The notes: a model not told the origin generated them from the letters alone. 64,000 nt of DNA from an uncultured Sphingomonadaceae bacterium (GCA_964406535.1 CAYOSE010000003.1:127-64126), one strand, 5' to 3'; numbered from the stretch's first letter, positions 1,076 to 33,784 are shown. Translations and numbers: made by a program.

Positions 1076-1162
1076 GCCCAGATGGCGGAATTGGTAGACG
1101 CACCGTCTTCAGGTGGCGGCGATCGCAAGGTCGTGGAGGTTCGAGTCCTCTTCTGGGCACCA
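1076..1162 (+). tRNA. tRNA-Leu (anticodon CAG)
   Basis: Acceptor stem GCCCAGA/TCTGGGC, D-loop GGAATTGGTAGAC, anticodon stem CCGTC/GGCGG with loop TTCAGGT, long variable arm, T-loop GGTTCGAGTCC, encoded CCA. Confidence 0.97.
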
Positions 1163-1167
1163 TTTCA
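1143..1167 (+). repeat. attL (tRNA 3' end direct repeat)
   Basis: GAGTCCTCTTCTGGGCACCATTTCA, repeated at 33661-33684 with a 1-nt deletion. Confidence 0.93.
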
Positions 1168-1274
1168 GCGTTCAGCGATGTCCAAACATATTGCATAAAT
1201 GGCGGAATTCTGCCATTTTTTCTCCGGTCCTGATGATTGGAGTCCCGCTTTGTTCCACTATGTTTTGCATCGAC

Positions 1275-1338: not shown

Positions 1339-2541
1339 ATGGCTCTGACGACTCAGCAGGTTCGCGGGTTCAAGCCGAAGGATAAGCCTTACAAGAAGGG
1401 CGATGAGAGAGGCCTGTACCTCCTCGTAAAACCGAATGGCTCAAAGCTCTGGCATCTCAAGTATCGCTTCGGCGGCAGGGAAAAGAAGATGCCGATTGGC
1501 GCTTTCCCGGAAGTCGGCCTGGCGCAGGCGCGTCACGAAAGGGATCGTGCGCGCCTCGCGATTGCCGATGGCATCGACCCCATGCGCGAGCGCAAGCGGG
1601 AAAAGGCGCAAATCAAGCTTGGCGCAGAGAACACGTTCGCATCTGTGGCGCAGACCTACATCGAGGAGAAGATGGTCCGGGAGGGGCGGGCCGAGGCAAC
1701 GCTTCGCAAGGCACGCTGGTTTCTCGATCTGCTCAAACCTGCCGTAGGGAACATGCCGCTCAATGATGTCGATCCGCAGCTGATGCTGGCGGCGCTCAAA
1801 AAGCTGGAGGCGAAAGGCAATCTGGAAACGGCGAAGAAGTGCCGTTCGTTTGCAAGCCGGGTGTTCCGGTTCGGAGCGGCCATGGGTCTTTGCGAGTCTG
1901 ATCCGACATCAATCCTCAAAGGCGCGCTGGTTTCGCCAAAGGCGCGGCATTACGCGGCGATCCTCGAACCGGAGAAGCTGGGTCAACTGCTGCGCGCGAT
2001 CGATGGCTACGAGTGCTACCCTGTCACGAAATTCGCATTGCAAATCGCGCCTCACATATTCGTGCGGCCTGGCGAACTTCGTCACGGAGAGTGGGAGGAG
2101 ATCGACTGGGACAAAGCCACCTGGACTATTCCAGAAGGCAAAATGAAGGCGCGCCGGACCCATGTGGTGCCGTTGTCCCGGCAGGTTCTGGAACTGTTTC
2201 GGGAGCTGAAGTCGATTTCCGGCGGGAGGGGATACATCTTTCCGGCATTTCACACCCGGCAACGGCCCATGAGCGAGAACACGATCAATGCGGCCTTCCG
2301 CCGCATGGGTTTCACCAAGGACGAAGTCACAGCGCACGGTTTGCGTTCGACGGCGTCCACCATGCTCAACGAAAGCGGCCTCTGGCATCCCGACGCCATC
2401 GAACGCGCACTGGCCCATGGCGATAGCAACGCGATCCGAGGCGTCTACAATCGTGGCAACTACTGGGATGAGCGCGTCAAAATGGCTCAGTGGTGGAGCG
2501 ATAATCTGGACAAACTTCGAAAAGGCGAATCGAGCCGTTGA
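1339..2541 (+). CDS. int: P4-family tyrosine integrase with N-terminal arm-binding domain
   Basis: N-terminal KPYKKGDERGLYLLVKPNGSKLWHLKYR; catalytic motifs VRPGE, HGLR, LAHG, VYNR; adjacent to tRNA/attL. Confidence 0.96.
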   Translation: MALTTQQVRGFKPKDKPYKKGDERGLYLLVKPNGSKLWHLKYRFGGREKKMPIGAFPEVGLAQARHERDRARLAIADGIDPMRERKREKAQIKLGAENTFASVAQTYIEEKMVREGRAEATLRKARWFLDLLKPAVGNMPLNDVDPQLMLAALKKLEAKGNLETAKKCRSFASRVFRFGAAMGLCESDPTSILKGALVSPKARHYAAILEPEKLGQLLRAIDGYECYPVTKFALQIAPHIFVRPGELRHGEWEEIDWDKATWTIPEGKMKARRTHVVPLSRQVLELFRELKSISGGRGYIFPAFHTRQRPMSENTINAAFRRMGFTKDEVTAHGLRSTASTMLNESGLWHPDAIERALAHGDSNAIRGVYNRGNYWDERVKMAQWWSDNLDKLRKGESSR

Positions 2542-2568: not shown

Positions 2569-3273
2569 TTAGAGCGGCAAATATTCCATATGGATGCCCC
2601 AAAAATCCGCGGGATCTCGATATAGGTTGATCGTGTTGCTGGAGCAGAACGCGACAAGGCCCGAAGGCGGCTGCGCCGGGAGATCGTGGGCCCACCAAAT
2701 GAACCAGCGCCGCGTGTTGCGGGTGCGACTTGGATTGGTGCGCATAGTCATTTCTCGACGAACTCCGAGAAGTTCTTTCAAGAGGGCTTTGTTGAACACG
2801 CGATGTTTTGCTTCAACACCTAGTAAGACTTCGTCTGGCAGGGGTCTCTGGCTAGTGCCTGGAACCACCAGCACGATGTCAAGTTCATGGCATTTGCCAT
2901 AAATCTGGCCGGTGAGGGCTTTCGCTGCGCGGCCTGCGCTGATTGCCAGACATTCAATATCTACCCAGAGCTCGCCAACAGTCCCGCGATCGTCGTCGAT
3001 ACGGATATACGGCCATTTGGCACGATCAATTGGTCCGCCCTTGGCGCGGAACACGAGCGACGATCCATGTACGAGAATAAAGCTTAGCGATGAACGCATG
3101 GCCTTCAGCCTAGCCATCACTTCAATCAACGCGTTTAATTCATATGCTTTCTCCTGCAGTGTCGCGCTCGCGAGCAATTGGCCGGCGGTCCGACGATCCA
3201 ATCCCAGATGACTACGAAAGGCGTCACGCAGCTTCTTCTTCACTGTCGTCGATGTACGCGGTTTGAGCGCCAC
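2569..3273 (-). CDS. Hypothetical protein, putative PD-(D/E)XK nuclease
   Basis: 234 aa; ELDIVLV...LLGVEAKHR resembles a D...ExK motif; GTG start overlaps the TAG of the upstream gene. Confidence 0.55.
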   Translation of the reverse strand: MALKPRTSTTVKKKLRDAFRSHLGLDRRTAGQLLASATLQEKAYELNALIEVMARLKAMRSSLSFILVHGSSLVFRAKGGPIDRAKWPYIRIDDDRGTVGELWVDIECLAISAGRAAKALTGQIYGKCHELDIVLVVPGTSQRPLPDEVLLGVEAKHRVFNKALLKELLGVRREMTMRTNPSRTRNTRRWFIWWAHDLPAQPPSGLVAFCSSNTINLYRDPADFWGIHMEYLPL

Positions 3274-3740
3274 TACCGTTCTCCATCTGAACTGTCGGTT
3301 GCGTCCTCCCAGAAGCCGCCGTCGTCACCATGGATCATGGCGACAAAGCTGCGCAGAAATTCAATCATCGCATCGACTTCCTCGGATTCTCCGGACAGTG
3401 AGCGTCGATCTTCACCGAACTCGACCTCGAATGTGTCCACAGGATCTCCTTCCTCGGTCAGGAGAAGGCTCCCTAAGCGTTCGCGCTGTTGATTGAGCGT
3501 CCAGTGCGATCGCGATTTTAGGAAGAGCATAAACTCGCTGGCATAGAGGCGTAGATCACTCAGAGCGGGCTCATTGGCATCAGCCGCCTCTATTGAACTA
3601 TCCGCCGCACCCGCTCGACGCTCTTCGATCGCTAGCTCCATGGCAAGGTCCCAGTTGGCATACCCGGAGCGTTGGACCAGCAAGCGGAATTCGTCGAAAA
3701 CGTCCTGCCATTCCTCCTCGCTAAACTCACGCGTGTCCAT
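3273..3740 (-). CDS. Highly acidic hypothetical protein
   Basis: 155 aa, about 39 D/E versus about 14 K/R by hand count; AGAAGG RBS-like sequence upstream; coupled to the downstream gene. Confidence 0.7.
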   Translation of the reverse strand: MDTREFSEEEWQDVFDEFRLLVQRSGYANWDLAMELAIEERRAGAADSSIEAADANEPALSDLRLYASEFMLFLKSRSHWTLNQQRERLGSLLLTEEGDPVDTFEVEFGEDRRSLSGESEEVDAMIEFLRSFVAMIHGDDGGFWEDATDSSDGER

Positions 3741-3945
3741 GATGCCTTCTTATCTCCTGCTTCCCGATAGGACTGTGAACTGAGTACTTACCGGGCATTA
3801 AATGAATCCAGAATTCTACACCGGGTGACAGAAGTTTACGTCGAAGAGTATGGCGTAGGTTCGAAACGGACTTGACTGGTACATTGGTTCTTATCTGTTC
3901 CGCAAAATTGCAAGCTCGCGCGGTCACAACATTTGGACGTAAAAT

Positions 3946-5070
3946 TTGCCCTTGCTCTGCTCCACAATCGTTGCACCTGACAGTTCACATTGGGCCAAAT
4001 GGCTTGACGCGATGTCCGCTGATGATCGCATTCGACAAGAGCGAGCACTTTCGTTGCACGATCGGCTCCTCGCACAAGGTCGTATACCTCTACTGTGCTG
4101 GCACCACCTGGAAGAATTGCTCGGTGGAGATGATGACACAAAAGCTCGCAAACGTATCTCCTTCCTGACGTCGCTCCCTCTCATCGCGTGGATTCGGTTG
4201 CCAAAAGACCAAATCGGGCTGGCATCCGCCGCACATGTGCGCGCCGCCGAGGTGATCGCAGCGAGCGAGGGCCTGAACGATCTTATCGATATCCGCGATC
4301 GAGCTCGCGAGCTTCTCTTGCGATTTGGAACCGGCAGCCAAGCCATCGGCGAAGAAGAGTGGGTTTGGGAGGCGGTGCGTCCCATATTGCGAGCGCGCAA
4401 GAATGGATCTGACCTGATCGCCGCTCTGGGACCGCTGCGCACATTCGACGAAAGCCGGACGATCGGCGAGCTTTCGAGGGGTTCGATTAATTCCCCGCAA
4501 GAGATGCGGGCGCAGCTGGGAACTATTCGCGCCAAGGCGTTTGAAGAAGCAATGCAGAGCACTGGCGGAGACGTGGTTCGAGCTGGGGAGATGGCGAACG
4601 AGTTCCTAGTGCGAATCTTGTCGAAGCTTCCACCACCAGGGACAACCATTCGGGAACTATTGGTCTCCTCTCTGGTCGATCAGGGCCTCGACGAAGCTGA
4701 GGTGCGCGATGAATGTGTTCTGGCGGACCTTAGTCGCCTTGGTGTGTTTCGCAGCCAACTTCGGGTGATCGCGTCCGAGACTGGTCACTCATTTGAGGCA
4801 CTTAAGCGCGTGCCAATGGACGTGCTGCCTAGCTGGGTGGTCGCTGAGGCCCTTCGAAAACATGGACAGGTCAGAAAGCTACGACCGGGCAGTGATCTAC
4901 ACGATAGCCATCTCGCTGTATTGGCTGCCTACTGCGACGTGCTTTATGTCGACAAACGGACGGCAGAAGATTTCCGGCGTGCAGAGAGTAAGGAGCCGGA
5001 GCTTGTTGGGCTGATAGGGACCATTGCCAAGGCGAGCGACTTCGACGGAATCCTGGCACCAACAGGTTAA
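3946..5070 (+). CDS. Hypothetical protein, possible PIN-like nuclease
   Basis: 374 aa; acidic residues in PIN-like positions: IVAPDSS, HHLEEL, DLHDSHLAVLAAYCDVLYVDKR; start codon uncertain. Confidence 0.5.
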   Translation: MPLLCSTIVAPDSSHWAKWLDAMSADDRIRQERALSLHDRLLAQGRIPLLCWHHLEELLGGDDDTKARKRISFLTSLPLIAWIRLPKDQIGLASAAHVRAAEVIAASEGLNDLIDIRDRARELLLRFGTGSQAIGEEEWVWEAVRPILRARKNGSDLIAALGPLRTFDESRTIGELSRGSINSPQEMRAQLGTIRAKAFEEAMQSTGGDVVRAGEMANEFLVRILSKLPPPGTTIRELLVSSLVDQGLDEAEVRDECVLADLSRLGVFRSQLRVIASETGHSFEALKRVPMDVLPSWVVAEALRKHGQVRKLRPGSDLHDSHLAVLAAYCDVLYVDKRTAEDFRRAESKEPELVGLIGTIAKASDFDGILAPTG

Positions 5071-5269: not shown

Positions 5270-5869
5270 CTATGGCTGATGGATCTTTTCGGTGAGGAAG
5301 AACACGCCGTGTAGCGTTGAAACCAGCATTGAAGAAAACGCAAAGGTGAGCGCGATGCCCACAATGGCTTTGACTAGGAGCCAAGGCCATACTGCTCCAA
5401 TAGAACCAGCAATGAAGGCGTGCAGGGCCTCAATCGCACCGGACAGCGCATTGATGGCCACTAACGCAAAGCACAGGCCGAACGACACAACGACAAGGTA
5501 GGAAAACAGGTAGGAAAGGAACAGCCGCCGGGTCAAAGGGTTGGCCTTCACTATTTTCCCGTTGACCAGCATATCTATCGTCGGCGCAGGCGAGGGCATT
5601 TCCTTGTCCATTGAAGTGCTGCCAAAGGTCGCAACCGCTGCAAGGCCAGCGAAATAGAATCCCGGAAGCGTTGAAACCAGCGTCAGCAAACTTGTTGCAA
5701 GGCCACCTTCACCAACAAGCGCGGGTTTGACAGGCAGCACGACGTAAATGACAACGGCGACGACCGTAAGAATCAGCGGAAGCCACGTGGTATAGGTCCG
5801 CATTTCGACGTGCGAAATGCGGCGATAGGCGACTCCCCGACCTAGTTCATATAGTAGCTGTCCAAACAC
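5270..5869 (-). CDS. Four-TM membrane protein (RexB/KwaA-like architecture)
   Basis: 199 aa with four hydrophobic stretches (WLPLILTVVAVVIYVVLP; LLTLVSTLPGFYFAGLAAVATF; LFLSYLFSYLVVVSFGLCFALVAI; LLVKAIVGIALTFAFSSMLV); GTG start 1 nt after the upstream stop. Confidence 0.75.
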   Translation of the reverse strand: MFGQLLYELGRGVAYRRISHVEMRTYTTWLPLILTVVAVVIYVVLPVKPALVGEGGLATSLLTLVSTLPGFYFAGLAAVATFGSTSMDKEMPSPAPTIDMLVNGKIVKANPLTRRLFLSYLFSYLVVVSFGLCFALVAINALSGAIEALHAFIAGSIGAVWPWLLVKAIVGIALTFAFSSMLVSTLHGVFFLTEKIHQP

Positions 5870-5870
5870 C

Positions 5871-6854
5871 TCAAAGCGTCCGATGGTTCAGAAATTCCGG
5901 GATTGCCAAGTCCCTCAAGTGACTAACTACCTGCATAGCAGATTGGTCCAAAAATGGATAGATATTAGTGAGTTCGAAGAACTTGACGTATAGTTCTTCA
6001 AGTGGGTTCCCAGTGGTGGTATCAATTTGCACCGTGACGGTTTTATTGTTCCCCGGAACCTTATAACTGACCTTTGCTACGCCATAAGTTCCAGAGTTTG
6101 CTTGGAACGATTGGACGAGTGATTGCCACATATTCGCTGGAAGATTGTTTTGGTCCAGTTGAAGGCGAAGTTCGGTTTCCTTCTTCTTCAGATAGGCGGA
6201 ACCGGCGATGGGCGTTACGGCTTCAGCTTTGACAAGTGATATGCCGGTAATCTGCCCGTTGTTAATGTCGGCAATTAGCGTGTCCGACGGCCTGCCTCGC
6301 AGTTCGATATGTGGGCAACACCGCTCCATTCGTGGTTGGCCTTGGCGGGTCAATCCGCCCGCTGGATGGGGATATGTAAACGACGTTGCGTCGTCCCTAT
6401 ATTCGTAGTGCAGCAACTTCGACAAAAGCCTTTGCACAAGGCTGGACGCCAAACCCGGAATGCGCTCAATCGCGCATGTGTAGATGTTTGGAAAACCCTG
6501 TTCTTGGGCCGTCGAAATGATGACGTGGCATCCGAAGTCGGAACCTTCGTTTTCTTCCTTTTCCAGCACATTGAAATGCCCGGCAGCGGGGTCGGAATAC
6601 ACGGCGTTTGGCGTAGTCTTATCAGACAAGCGGACAAGCAACGTGATGAACTGTTGAGCAGCGTCAATCTGAATGTCACCAACCAACATGGTGCCGGTTT
6701 CAGAACGAATTGGATAAGTGCGGGCCGTATCCTTCATGCGCTGGAAGACCGGAACGATGTCGTCCATCGTAGGGATAGACGCACCTTCCTTACGGGCACC
6801 AATTTCCAGATCGTATATGTAAAACTGCCTACGATTGTTCTGCATTCGATACAT
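5871..6854 (-). CDS. Soluble hypothetical protein (RexA/KwaB/DUF4747-like candidate)
   Basis: 327 aa, beta-rich pattern, no TM segments; operonic with the 4-TM gene; fold call is inference only. Confidence 0.6.
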   Translation of the reverse strand: MYRMQNNRRQFYIYDLEIGARKEGASIPTMDDIVPVFQRMKDTARTYPIRSETGTMLVGDIQIDAAQQFITLLVRLSDKTTPNAVYSDPAAGHFNVLEKEENEGSDFGCHVIISTAQEQGFPNIYTCAIERIPGLASSLVQRLLSKLLHYEYRDDATSFTYPHPAGGLTRQGQPRMERCCPHIELRGRPSDTLIADINNGQITGISLVKAEAVTPIAGSAYLKKKETELRLQLDQNNLPANMWQSLVQSFQANSGTYGVAKVSYKVPGNNKTVTVQIDTTTGNPLEELYVKFFELTNIYPFLDQSAMQVVSHLRDLAIPEFLNHRTL

Positions 6855-7453: not shown

Positions 7454-8365
7454 TCAGGATACCTCGTAGGACTTTTCCAGCAGCGGCTTTGCCTTCTCGA
7501 AATCGGCGGAACTCTGGATCGTAATCTCAAGATCGCCAGTGCCGAAATGGCCGATACCGCGCACATCGCGGGTAAAGCCTTGTTCGAGCACGACGCTGTC
7601 CGGATCGACTTTGACATAGACCAGCAGCTTCTTGGCCTGATTGCGGAACTCAAGACTGGCGAAATTCTTGATGCGACGGAAGGCGACATAATAGGCGGTC
7701 GTCTTGGCTTCCACGTCGTCGCCAAGCGCGAGCATGAAGTCCGACATCAAATGATAAAGGTCGGTCAGCTCCTGGGGTGCCTCTGTCATCTGATCTTCAA
7801 TGGTCTTGTAGTTCGGCTTGGTGCCGGTCGGCGCGGCAGGCACGGCGGCTGAAGTCGGCCCCTTCGCGCTGGCAGAGGTAAGTTGTTCAAGCAGCAGAAG
7901 GTCGCCTTCAAACTTCCGGTAGCGAATGAGCGAGATATTGCGGTTCATCTGCTTGACCGCATGCTCATCGTATTTGCCGAAATCCCCGGCGATGCAGATC
8001 AGGCGCGGCCCGGACCAATCGACGGCTTTGGCCGCGTCCTTGCCGAGCTTTTCCAGCACGAGCCATTCGAAGTCCTTCCGGTGTCCCATCAACCAGTCGA
8101 GGTAAAACAGGCCCTGATTGATCACGTTCTCGTTCGACGAACGCTTGTACTCAATCACTACCGGGCTATTGTTCTCGTCGATCCCAAGGCTATCCATACG
8201 ACCACCCTCGTTGGTGATGAACTCGCTCGCGAGAAACCGGACGCCGAGAAGGCTCTCAAGATTGGCTTCGAACAAAGTCTGCAGCGACTTCTCCAGAGCA
8301 ACCGCTCCGCCGGACAACTCGGCAACGCCGCCCTGAGTCATTCTGTAGAGTTTGATGTCGCTCAT
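7454..8365 (-). CDS. NucS/DUF91-like PD-(D/E)XK domain + DUF5655 protein
   Basis: 303 aa; LEKSLQ...GRMDSLGID...VIEYKR nuclease motif; C-terminal RDVRGIGHFGTGDLEITI typical of DUF5655. Confidence 0.8.
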   Translation of the reverse strand: MSDIKLYRMTQGGVAELSGGAVALEKSLQTLFEANLESLLGVRFLASEFITNEGGRMDSLGIDENNSPVVIEYKRSSNENVINQGLFYLDWLMGHRKDFEWLVLEKLGKDAAKAVDWSGPRLICIAGDFGKYDEHAVKQMNRNISLIRYRKFEGDLLLLEQLTSASAKGPTSAAVPAAPTGTKPNYKTIEDQMTEAPQELTDLYHLMSDFMLALGDDVEAKTTAYYVAFRRIKNFASLEFRNQAKKLLVYVKVDPDSVVLEQGFTRDVRGIGHFGTGDLEITIQSSADFEKAKPLLEKSYEVS

Positions 8366-8372
8366 GCAGGTC

Positions 8373-9161
8373 CTACCTCGGAAGCTTGTAACGGATGGTC
8401 AGGGATGCGCCCTTTCCCTTTGGTGGTTGGGCAAGAATTGAATCGGCAGCTTTCTGCTCCGCATACATGGCATTGCAGCAGCTTGGCATGGCTGCTTTTG
8501 GCCCCGGATAGCCTCCGAGCTCGCGATGGAGTTCGCCGGAATTGATGTCGAGAAAAGTAGCTTGGCGCATCTCGGCAAGGCGCAGTTTCTTGCGGATTGC
8601 CTCCCGGAAATCATCGGTTGTAGGTATGGAGTTGGCAATTCCTTGTGGCGTAGGTGGAGCGATGGGAAGGCTCGGCTCCGCAGTGGCCTCTAGCTCAAGT
8701 CGGCGACCTGACATGCTCACTGGATTGAGCTCCCAGACCTCGACATCCTCCGGCACCATGTGACCCTGAGTGCGCAGATAATATTCGGCAAGACTCTCGC
8801 TGCGACCGTCGCGAAGGCTCTCCTGCACGATCAGAATCTTGCGATAGCCAGACGGTGCCAGGATGAAATGCAGCATCGCCTCGTTCAGTGACCGCAGCTT
8901 CGCGCTGGGGGCGTTGCCGCCGCTGGTCCAAGTGTATGACTTGCACTCAACAAGCACTGGTGGGGCATCGCCACCCAAGTCGAAGTTGTGCGCCTTCTTT
9001 CGCTCATGCCCAATCAGCGCAGAGAAATTGAAGTCCAGCTCGAGTCCTTGGGATGACAGGAAATCCCGGGCCGACTGTTCGAACTCACGCCCGGCATGCG
9101 CATTGCTGATCGCACCAACCCGTTGATGGGCATTCCGAGGTAGGTCCGCTTCGTCGCTCAC
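8373..9161 (-). CDS. Two-domain PD-(D/E)XK nuclease-like protein
   Basis: 262 aa; GREFE...HNFDLG...LVECKS N-terminal nuclease motif; separate C-terminal module INSGELHRELGGYPG...MPSCC...LTIRYKLPR; GTGA overlap with the MTase stop. Confidence 0.7.
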   Translation of the reverse strand: MSDEADLPRNAHQRVGAISNAHAGREFEQSARDFLSSQGLELDFNFSALIGHERKKAHNFDLGGDAPPVLVECKSYTWTSGGNAPSAKLRSLNEAMLHFILAPSGYRKILIVQESLRDGRSESLAEYYLRTQGHMVPEDVEVWELNPVSMSGRRLELEATAEPSLPIAPPTPQGIANSIPTTDDFREAIRKKLRLAEMRQATFLDINSGELHRELGGYPGPKAAMPSCCNAMYAEQKAADSILAQPPKGKGASLTIRYKLPR

Positions 9162-12100
9162 GCTGCGTATCGTCCATCTTTCAAACGACGTGCCTGTCCG
9201 ATGGCAGTGAGGGAATCGAGGATCGGGCGAACGGTTGCGGCGCGTTTGCCCTTGAAGGTGCGAGCGACATCCTGCGGGGCGAGTGGTACGGTCGAGGCGG
9301 ACAGGACGGCGGCAACGGCGCTGACCTGTTCGGGGAGCTTGTCAGGCCAGGGAAGCACATTGTCGGGCGCGGGGGCAGCCGCTTCGCCAAGGTCGAGAGT
9401 CTGCGAGATCGGGGCCTGATAGTCCGGGGCCTGGTATTCTGGGCGTAGCCAGCGGATAAGTCCCTTGGCTTCCTCGGCGGCGCGTTCCTTGTTGAGTGCG
9501 ACGAGGCGCGTGAGGATGTCCTCGTCTGAAAGATCGGCAGGCCAGCCATAGGCCTCTGCCACTTTGCGGTCGATGGCGTCGTGATGCTGGCGGATCAGGG
9601 TGACGAGGCCGCGATCATGGATATCGCGCTCGGCATCGGTCAGCGCGCGGCCCTCTCCATCGTTAGCTCGCAGGGCTTCGAGCACGTTGTAGACCTTGGT
9701 GAGAGTCAGGTCCTTGTTTTCGGCCAGCACCCGCTTTCGCAGCGCATCGAGCGCCTCGGCTTCGGCGCGGATTTTGTCCTTGAGTGGATCGGGGACATCG
9801 CACGGGAAGGGAAACTTACCGAAGCAATCCGAGTGATTGTAATTCGAGTCATTTCCGACACCCAGCCATGCTCCTGAGCGTTCAGCCCAAATTAAATGCG
9901 TACGGCTGCTAAGCACTCCAAGGTGGAAGGCGTCTTCCAAACCGATGAATATGACCTTTGCGTCGGGCAATGTTGTGATCCTCTCAAACGAGAAGAGACG
10001 ATATTTGGAAGTCCGACATGTAGCGATGAAGCGTTGAAGTCCTGAAGCTGCCGCACGCATGTCCGATCTTGGCTCGGCATACACCCACCATTTTTCGCGG
10101 TAAGACGCTCGCTTGTTCTGATCTCTTACAGGTTTCACTCGGTGGAGCAGTATTTGATATAGGTCAGGAAATTCGCTTCGGAATTCCTCCTCCGAATAGC
10201 CGAACGCATCGATGACGAAACGAGTTTCGCGCCGTCCAGTCAGATCCATCCCGATTATATAGTCTTTGACGACCCCAGATTGCTTTGCTGTCGCAAGATC
10301 GAGTCGGTCTAGGTCGGTTGATTCGAGTCTAAACCCCTTCCCGACAAGGGTCACACCTTGGTAGCTGATTTTCCCATTCGAGCTGAGGTAGGATGAACCG
10401 GCAAGGTTACTTCCGACAGAAAGGTCGGAATTGATTTGATCGCCAGCTTTTGTCGAGAGCTTGACCCAGCGCTCCCCGTACCCGTCCGATATCAGACCCT
10501 CATCAACCACTTCCTGCAAGATTGACTGTCCCGAATAGCCTCCTGTTGTCATCGCGATGCGCACGTCCGCCCCATCTGCTCCATCGACCCAGGGATGATC
10601 GGGAATGGCGAAGAGAAGTTTGCACTTCGCCGCTTCGATCACTGACCTGTTGAATGTTTGCGTGATCGAGTTTGTCGTGATGAACCCAAATCGTGTTGTG
10701 TCACCTCTTGCGGTCGCAGCTGCTGATACTGCCCACCAGTACATCACGAAATCGACCGACTTGCTGATCTTCGGATAAGCCGTACGGACTGCTTCCGCGT
10801 ATCCATCGCCTAACCTGTCGCGCATGCGCTTGTTGCCGATAAATGGCGGGTTCCCGACGATGAATTCCGCATTTGGCCACTTCGTCGATCGCGGTTTGAC
10901 GTAGCGGTAAAGTTCTTTCCGCCCGGTTTCGTCGGGCACCAGTTTTCCGGTAACTGGGTGCTTTTTGAAGCTGATGCCATCCCAAATGCTGAGTGGCTTG
11001 CCGTGCTCATCGCGTTCCAGCTCGCGCCTGTCGTAATCGATCAGGGCGTCGCGGTTCTCGATAGTGCGGATGTCCTTCAGGATCGGTTCGGGCGGGGCGC
11101 GGTCCTTGCCGTTTACGCGGAAATGCCATTGCAGGTAGCCGATCCATAGGACCAGCTGCGCGATGGCGGCGGCGCGCGGGTTGATTTCGATCCCAAGGAA
11201 ATTCTCTGGCGTGATTGTGTGTCCGGTGATCTCCGCTACGTATTGATCGTCACCCAGCTCGACCAAGAGGTCGAGCACTTCGCCCTCCAGTTCCTTCATT
11301 CGCGCCATGGCGACATAGAGGAAATTGCCGGTACCGCAGGCAGGGTCGAGGACGCGGGTTTGCGCCAGTTTTGCATGGAAGCCCTCGACAAGCGACCTAG
11401 CCTCTTTCGCCTTGTCCGCGCCGATAAGTTCGGAGGCGGCAGCACGCACCCCGTTCCAGTCAGCGCGAAGAGGTTCCATAATTGTTGGGCCGATCAGCCG
11501 CTCGACATATGCGCGCGGCGTGTAGTGCGCACCAAGCTTGGCCCGTTCCTTTACGTTGAGTGCGCGTTCGAGCAACGTGCCAAAGATCGCCGGCTCGACC
11601 TCGGTCCAGACCTTGTTCGCCGCTTCGATCAGCACCTTCAATTCATCGGCATCGAGCGGCAGTGCATCGGTGTTCTTGAAGAGGTAACCATTGAATTTAC
11701 GCACCTGCACCGCGAGCGCGGGCGAGAACTCGCCCGAATCCATCGCCTTCCACAATGCCGTCAGCGAGCGAGGCAGGTTGTCGAGATTGTCCTCATGCGC
11801 TTTTAGCAGCGTCTTGAAGCTATCCTTCGGCAGCAGAACTTCGGTGTCCTCTGCGAACATCGTGAACAGCACGCGCATGAGAAACCCACTGACGGTTTCG
11901 GGATCGTGGTTGCGCTCCAGCCGCTTGGAGAGGGTGGCCAGCAGGTCGGCAATTTCACGGGTGACGGCGGCGGAGCGCGATGCCGGGTCGAGACTTTGCG
12001 GATCGGTCCAAATCGCGGCGAGGCGTTCGCGTACCTTCTCGTCGCGCAGGTCCTCAAGCATGATGCGATAACCGGCCCGGTCGGGAAACTGCGCGTAGGC

Positions 12101-33617: not shown

Positions 33618-33660
33618 AAGGTAATTTAATCCGAGAATTCCGCCGTTTTTGTTCCCTTTA

Positions 33661-33684
33661 GAGTCCTCTTCTGGCACCATTTCA
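33661..33684 (+). repeat. attR
   Basis: GAGTCCTCTTCTGG-CACCATTTCA, 24 of 25 nt identical to attL. Confidence 0.93.
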
Positions 33685-33784
33685 ACATACTTCGATGTTC
33701 GTGGGCGGCAGTTGCAGCTGTCGATACCAGTGGGTTGGGCACGGTCTCTTGTTTTAGGCGATCCCGCAGCTGCCTGAGAACAGC

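Follow-up and report, generated by a model that had tools for sequence, protein, structure and literature searches.

Here we describe a two-gene operon that is a good candidate for a new toxin-antitoxin-like defence module. It lies within a 64,000-nucleotide stretch of DNA (the window) from an uncultured Sphingomonadaceae bacterium (GCA_964406535.1, CAYOSE010000003.1:127-64126). The downstream gene very likely encodes a PD-(D/E)XK nuclease and the upstream gene encodes a small acidic partner. Comparison of the sequences across many genomes supports the view that the two genes are a conserved, co-inherited unit. That the nuclease is held inactive by its cognate partner, in the service of abortive infection or of element addiction, has in our judgement about an even chance of being right. 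Neither family has a match in any of the libraries searched (Pfam, NCBIfam, PHROGs and PADLOC), and a pair of this kind did not turn up in searches of the literature.

The elements of the operon, and the region upstream of it, are as follows.

3273-3740, minus strand: upstream partner gene, encoding a 155-aa acidic protein (ORF calling)
2569-3273, minus strand: downstream nuclease gene, encoding a 234-aa basic protein with a PD-(D/E)XK-like core (ORF calling)
3281-3284, minus strand: GGAG, the Shine-Dalgarno sequence of the nuclease gene, within the end of the partner gene (sequence reading)
3741-3945, no strand given: intergenic region of 205 bp between the pair and a divergent 374-aa ORF

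The TAG stop of the partner gene and the GTG start of the nuclease gene form the sequence TAGTG (the reverse complement of 3271-3275), in which base 3273 is common to both genes. This is the 1-nt overlap that the initial annotation had read. The GGAG lies 5' of the nuclease start, at a distance of 7 nt from the GTG. A 1-nt overlap with an internal GGAG is the classic layout for translational coupling of two genes. The 205-bp region is presumably the location of the operon promoter. No consensus sigma-70 site was found in 3741-3945 by promoter scan, and the promoter and terminator scan gave no signal above shuffled expectation.

The computed properties of the two proteins agree with the first description of an acidic protein of about 25% D/E beside a basic protein of 234 aa. 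The partner consists of 25% D/E, with a net charge of -25 and a pI of 4.13. The nuclease has a pI of 9.9 and a net charge of +12. The pair had been called unannotated, and both proteins are indeed 'hypothetical' in every source.

Close homologues of the 234-aa protein number 58, all of them 'hypothetical', and come from Sphingomonadales, Devosia and Spirulina. A profile search of 1.84 billion representative proteins returned 316 clusters at E <= 0.001 (274 at E <= 1e-10), which places the family at about 316 clusters at 50% identity. Family members are stand-alone proteins of 215-245 aa. An alignment of 112 members, which share 22-68% identity with the protein of the window, has five invariant residues: E45, E130, D132, K156 and G170. 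A further set is conserved in at least 90% of the 112 sequences (K42, Y44, H129, P144, E154, K162, L169, R172, R173, E174 and P202), and the family motif can be written as HELD-x21-E(A/C)K...RRE. The D...EAK motif pointed out initially corresponds to H129-E-L-D132 and E154-A-K156, which are invariant or nearly so across these 112 diverse homologues. The codons for the conserved residues are located in the window as follows.

3139-3141, minus strand: codon of the invariant E45 (in K42-x-Y44-E45), first core helix (alignment and model)
2878-2889, minus strand: codons of H129-E130-L131-D132, core strand (sequence, alignment and model)
2806-2814, minus strand: codons of E154-A155-K156, next core strand (sequence and alignment)
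2752-2760, minus strand: codons of R172-R173-E174, end of the helix after the ExK strand (alignment and model)

The catalytic constellation of the PD-(D/E)XK nucleases is present in these sequences, with D132, K156 and E45 invariant and E154 conserved in at least 90% of the 112. In one distant subclade E154 is replaced by S or T, and E174 is retained there. SxK variants with a helix-borne Glu are known from Cfr10I/NgoMIV-type enzymes. By analogy, the subclade in which S or T stands at position 154 is reminiscent of these enzymes.

An AF2 model of the nuclease, built on a 29-sequence alignment, has a pLDDT of 83 and a pTM of 0.86. Its elements run in the order helix 40-59 (with E45), strand 97-109, strand 128-136 (with D132), strand 149-156 (with E154 and K156), helix 162-175 (which ends in RRE) and strand 205-210. 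The predicted alpha-beta-beta-beta-alpha-beta order fits a PD-(D/E)XK core, as judged from secondary-structure order alone. Foldseek searches with the model returned nothing at E <= 0.001 in PDB or BFVD. The best PDB matches are all restriction-fold nucleases (NucC at E 0.028, Cdn1, VC1899 and Can2) and are weak, with E values of 0.015-0.05 and a TM of about 0.3. The BFVD matches, also weak, include exonucleases and a restriction endonuclease.

Sequence searches place the family outside those already catalogued. The 234-aa protein has no match in Pfam, NCBIfam, PHROGs, PADLOC or the PDB sequences, and its 112 relatives have no Pfam or PADLOC family match (one PADLOC match, at E 0.005, is spurious). 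Searches of the PDB sequences with single sequences and profiles gave chance matches only for both proteins of the pair. The assignment to the PD-(D/E)XK fold is made because the motif, the predicted topology and the weak Foldseek matches point the same way. The proposal of a PD-(D/E)XK nuclease stands on its strictly conserved signature and its predicted topology; the structural matches, at E of about 0.03 and TM of about 0.3, are weak and none is significant. Taken together, we consider the 234-aa protein very likely to be a nuclease of this kind.

The partner has no sequence relative in Pfam, NCBIfam, PHROGs, PADLOC or PDB. A predicted model (pLDDT 72) has four helices, a beta-hairpin, a further helix and a disordered acidic tail, and a fold search with it gave nothing credible. 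A word-based search with the partner found two relatives only, so by itself the protein resembles an orphan; genomic context shows otherwise. Across the family, no column of the partner alignment is invariant. No HTH, RHH, AbrB or similar DNA-binding domain was found in 17 partners, and the partner has no NTPase motifs. The protein is the founding member of a second unannotated and fast-evolving family.

The partner diverges about twice as fast as the nuclease, with 29% identity where the nucleases share 50-70%, and the nuclease is the more conserved member in every pair compared. In 52 of 53 non-redundant loci the partner carries a net negative charge, but the net charge of the nuclease spans -13 to +14 across loci. 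The combination of extreme acidity in the partner with a basic nuclease is confined to a single clade. The raw net charges of nuclease and partner are anticorrelated (Spearman rho -0.77, n=15; -0.60, n=53). We rejected this anticorrelation as evidence of binding: contrasts between 15 independent sister pairs gave 5 of opposite and 9 of the same sign, so the raw correlation is read as clade structure and not as compensatory evolution.

The two genes are found together in nearly all loci with sufficient upstream DNA. A metagenome scan returned 80 loci, of which 58 had at least 480 nt upstream of the nuclease, and a homologous ORF ending at the nuclease start was present in 55 of these 58. A partner HMM matched 64 of 65 candidate ORFs at E <= 1e-3 and none of 65 shuffled controls. 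All nine loci (9/9) from the species genomes have an ORF of 140-180 aa whose end meets the nuclease start. The partner ORF was also found in Novosphingobium (on an integrative and conjugative element, ICE), in Devosia and in a MAG, on a Pseudoalteromonas megaplasmid and on a faecal virome scaffold. It is kept in four distant relatives with 26-35% nuclease identity, and in a very remote relative from the same taxonomic family. The acidic gene is upstream of the nuclease in every locus.

Such pairing is far beyond chance. The initial annotation had named failure of the two genes to co-occur in other genomes as the result that would tell against it; the opposite was found, decisively, in 55/58 metagenome loci and in all inspected genome, plasmid and other loci. 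The distance matrices of partner and nuclease are correlated in a mirror-tree comparison (r = 0.80). One cluster in the representative library (P0073, 389 aa) is a fusion, with the partner at 1-165 and the nuclease at 166-384; its N-terminal 165 aa match the partner profile at E 2.8e-9. This single case is known from the protein alone, and a lost stop codon or a sequencing error is possible.

The unit appears to be limited to two genes. When the genes lying within 4 kb of the pair in 87 loci were compared by all-against-all BLAST, no third gene recurred, and tblastn found no orphan partner homologues in phages or plasmids. The divergent 374-aa ORF (3946-5070) was considered as a third component and rejected, as it is unrelated to the gene downstream of the pair in another locus (L014). 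This ORF has no significant match in Pfam, NCBIfam, PHROGs or PADLOC and is not kept beside the pair in other loci.

Metagenome loci without the partner are decayed copies. In one type (L043 / L097, 4710-5765) a serine-recombinase (resolvase) fragment is fused in frame to the nuclease and replaces the partner; the C-terminus of the nuclease is altered or diverged and the copy is degenerate. Another locus (L086) is without the partner and without about the first 35 residues of the nuclease. Nonsense mutations interrupt the nuclease in three more loci (L062, L078 and L081), and L081 also has a frameshift in the partner. The sole case of an apparently intact nuclease, with all the invariant residues, beside a frameshifted partner is that of Erythrobacter sp. 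SG61-1L (L013). The pieces of its partner lie at 7518-7715 and from 7736 onwards (region 7518-8125), and an assembly error is possible. An intact nuclease without an intact partner was thus found in 1 of about 75 loci. This asymmetry of decay is as expected if the partner protects the cell, although the numbers are small. In the Erythrobacter locus, translational coupling could also silence the nuclease.

We propose the following model for the pair. The operon would be a self-contained, horizontally mobile module in which the downstream gene encodes a Mg-dependent PD-(D/E)XK (restriction-endonuclease-like) nuclease. The catalytic residues would be E45, D132, E154 and K156, with E130 and E174 probably assisting. 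The partner would be made first, in step with the nuclease by way of translational coupling, and, in healthy cells, would bind the nuclease and block its activity. Loss or titration of the partner, or an end to its synthesis, as may happen on phage infection or loss of the element, would free the nuclease. The free nuclease would then cut nucleic acid, and the cell or the invader would be stopped. Binding, inhibition, DNA rather than RNA as the substrate, toxicity and the trigger are the parts of this model that we infer. The initial annotation had pointed to DNA mimicry by acidic partners and to displacement of the inhibitor by a phage trigger; both would be candidate features of the pair.

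Several findings speak against the model or limit it. The P0073 fusion and the strict 1:1 coupling fit a permanent subunit equally well. The apparently intact nuclease beside a frameshifted partner in Erythrobacter goes against a simple antitoxin, unless coupling silences the nuclease. The partner is without the DNA-binding domain of canonical type II antitoxins. Some neighbourhoods of the pair are housekeeping in nature, and the charge anticorrelation is a clade effect.

In the main rival, which we regard as unlikely, a heteromeric restriction-like nuclease would need the partner as a positive subunit, whether as sensor, as activator or as a factor for specificity or assembly. Such an enzyme would attack foreign DNA directly and would not be a restrained toxin. 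Strict co-occurrence, translational coupling and the natural partner-nuclease fusion are all in keeping with such an enzyme, and the nuclease signature is like those of type II restriction enzymes and NucC; the conserved module, however, includes no methyltransferase or other device to tell self from non-self. The lack of an antitoxin-type DNA-binding domain fits a subunit, but a partner that is poorly conserved, with no invariant column, would be an unusual catalytic cofactor. The Erythrobacter locus tolerates an intact nuclease with a broken partner, whereas the copies that have lost the partner all have truncated or altered nucleases.

The genomic setting bears on what an inhibited nuclease would be for. 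In the window, the pair is carried close to one end of an island. The features that delimit the island, and the candidate defence genes within it, are as follows.

1076-1162, plus strand: tRNA-Leu(CAG), the integration target of the island
1140-1181, plus strand: attL, the tRNA 3' end and flank (direct repeat of about 40 bp, imperfect)
1339-2541, plus strand: tyrosine integrase with Arm-DNA-bind_3, Phage_int_M and Phage_integrase domains (domain search)
5270-5869: PDC-M53B (PADLOC, E 7.1e-40)
5871-6854: PDC-M53A (PADLOC, E 3.7e-48)
7454-8365: PDC-S18, a 303-aa protein (PADLOC, E 6.8e-144; Pfam DUF5655; weak NucS_C match)
33658-33698, plus strand: attR, imperfect direct repeat of attL

The GC content is 52-60% between the att sites and 62-66% in the flanks. 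The stretch between the repeats is a tRNA-integrated island of about 32.5 kb. Integrase and pair are convergent, and the pair is the first cargo beside the integrase. The two proteins encoded in the 5270-6854 block are a soluble one of 327 aa and a membrane one of 199 aa, and the block is already catalogued as a candidate system, given its PADLOC match to PDC-M53. The 262-aa ORF that adjoins PDC-S18 (8373-9161) has no family match.

The pair is rare, patchy and horizontally mobile. Of 400 other genomes of the same family, 2 carry it, and among six of the same genus none does (0/6). In the Novosphingobium ICE the coupling-protein gene lies on one side of it and the relaxase gene on the other. 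Elsewhere it lies beside integrases, IS elements and resolvases, and some copies lie among housekeeping genes. The commonest neighbour in the 87 loci is a serine recombinase, in 5 loci.

Known or candidate defence genes are also often found beside the pair. The neighbours include PD-Lambda-2_B-like and CapP-like peptidases in Sphingomonas cynarae (L001), the Dcm methyltransferase and MvaI/BcnI restriction enzyme of a type II RM system (L003) and an HD-CE/HATPase_c_3 protein (L023). In the metagenomes they include Ppl, a type III REase, a PbeA-like protein, GajB, STK_OB (E 1e-170) and mREase_II (E 8e-149). Matches to PADLOC models were found in 6 of 10 metagenome neighbours examined, a descriptive figure that amounts to guilt by association. 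The placement of the module in defence islands and mobile elements is borne out by the PDC-M53/PDC-S18 island, by the ICE and by the defence neighbours in unrelated loci.

Two of these neighbourhoods have features of their own. In the Sphingomonas cynarae locus (7591-10556) a CapP-like M78 peptidase is encoded downstream of the pair; after it comes a 542-aa protein with AAA kinase-like and adenylosuccinate-synthetase-like domains, an unusual combination. On a faecal scaffold recorded as 'UNVERIFIED Bacteriophage sp.' (MT837022.1; L024, 3441-7822), SIR2_2 and HerA genes are directly upstream of the pair. The phage label of this scaffold deserves checking because the scaffold looks like a defence island. 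It is the single match in the phage collection, and searches of IMG/VR with patterns from the broad alignment found no nuclease relatives.

The same settings invite a further alternative, in which the same nuclease-inhibitor chemistry serves the mobile element, for addiction or stabilisation or as a weapon against competitors, with no role in phage defence. The pair is directly beside the integrase in the window, lies between the coupling-protein and relaxase genes of the ICE, and adjoins serine recombinases in 5 loci and IS elements in others, all of which would suit such a role. Bona fide defence genes, however, adjoin the pair repeatedly in unrelated loci, and defence and addiction are not exclusive; we consider a role confined to the element quite improbable.

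Least probable, and in our view very unlikely, is that the 234-aa protein is not a PD-(D/E)XK DNase at all and is instead an RNase or tRNase, or a non-catalytic DNA-binding protein with an unrelated role (for example as a recombination or repair accessory): no fold or profile match to any known nuclease is significant and E154 gives way to S or T in the distant subclade, but the invariant E...ExD...K constellation falls on the expected secondary-structure elements, the best fold matches are all restriction-fold nucleases, and an SxK motif with a helix Glu is known from Cfr10I/NgoMIV-type enzymes, E174 being conserved here.

The proposed inhibitor-nuclease module can be compared with several known systems. 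NucC is an effector endonuclease of CBASS and of type III CRISPR. The nuclease described here is similar in size to NucC and to the NgoMIV/SgrAI/Cfr10I branch (234 vs about 240 aa), and NucC chains are the top Foldseek matches, which are weak (E 0.03, TM about 0.3). The type of catalytic motif is also alike, HELD-x21-EAK here as against IDx30EAK in NucC (doi 10.1101/694703). Unlike NucC, the nuclease has no PADLOC CBASS effector match and no match to the NucC sequences of the PDB by phmmer or hmmsearch; none of the 87 loci links the pair to a cyclase or Cas10, and a dedicated protein partner is present instead. With neither sequence similarity nor linkage to a cyclase, the nuclease finds no support as a member of the NucC family.

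The pair shares its organisation with the type II toxin-antitoxin systems. It is bicistronic, coupled and co-inherited, with the gene of the putative neutraliser first; it is small, mobile, patchy and found in defence islands, and the neutraliser evolves faster. It differs from them in that the partner lacks an HTH, RHH or any other DNA-binding domain and that the family of the putative toxin is not among the described TA toxins.

Nuclease-inhibitor pairs with acidic inhibitors are known, among them colicin E DNase-Im, barnase-barstar and NucA-NuiA. In such pairs the acidic inhibitor is expected to bind tightly, 1:1 and by electrostatic attraction, across the face that takes the substrate. As in these examples, a small acidic protein is encoded here beside a basic nuclease. 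In contrast to them, the acidic gene is upstream and the nuclease has no secretion or translocation domain. The partner resembles Im, barstar and NuiA in neither sequence nor fold, and its acidity varies between clades. In polymorphic toxin-immunity pairs a secreted multidomain protein ends in the toxin domain and the immunity gene follows directly downstream. The present pair does not fit this pattern, since the nucleases are stand-alone proteins of 215-245 aa and the acidic gene always precedes them.

Defence nucleases restrained by an operon partner have also been described. In Hachiman the PD-(D/E)XK nuclease HamA is restrained by HamB, and in PARIS the nuclease AriB is sequestered by AriA. 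By analogy, the nuclease proposed here may be inactive in complex with its operon partner until infection is sensed. The partners in Hachiman and PARIS are large helicase/ATPase proteins, whereas here the partner is a protein of 130-170 aa with no NTPase motifs. Neither protein of the pair has a PADLOC match to HamA, HamB, AriA or AriB. A known or candidate system of PADLOC-DB 2.0.0 was ruled out, as neither protein matches any HMM.

Our most specific proposal is a tentative one. The pair may represent a new two-component anti-phage system of Proteobacteria, Cyanobacteria, Actinobacteria and many metagenomes, in which a small, fast-evolving acidic protein not only inhibits a NucC/NgoMIV-like restriction-fold nuclease but also senses infection, and gating by a protein replaces the gating by cyclic nucleotides used by NucC. 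If the model holds, the pair would add a compact family, of two genes and about 390 codons, to the known defence or toxin-antitoxin modules, one that today's defence-annotation libraries miss. It would place a restriction-fold effector nuclease under the control of a dedicated protein partner, and not of methylation or a nucleotide signal. With names for both families, several hundred gene pairs now listed as 'hypothetical' in islands, ICEs and megaplasmids could be labelled. A search for the phage trigger could naturally start from the partner, which evolves fast.
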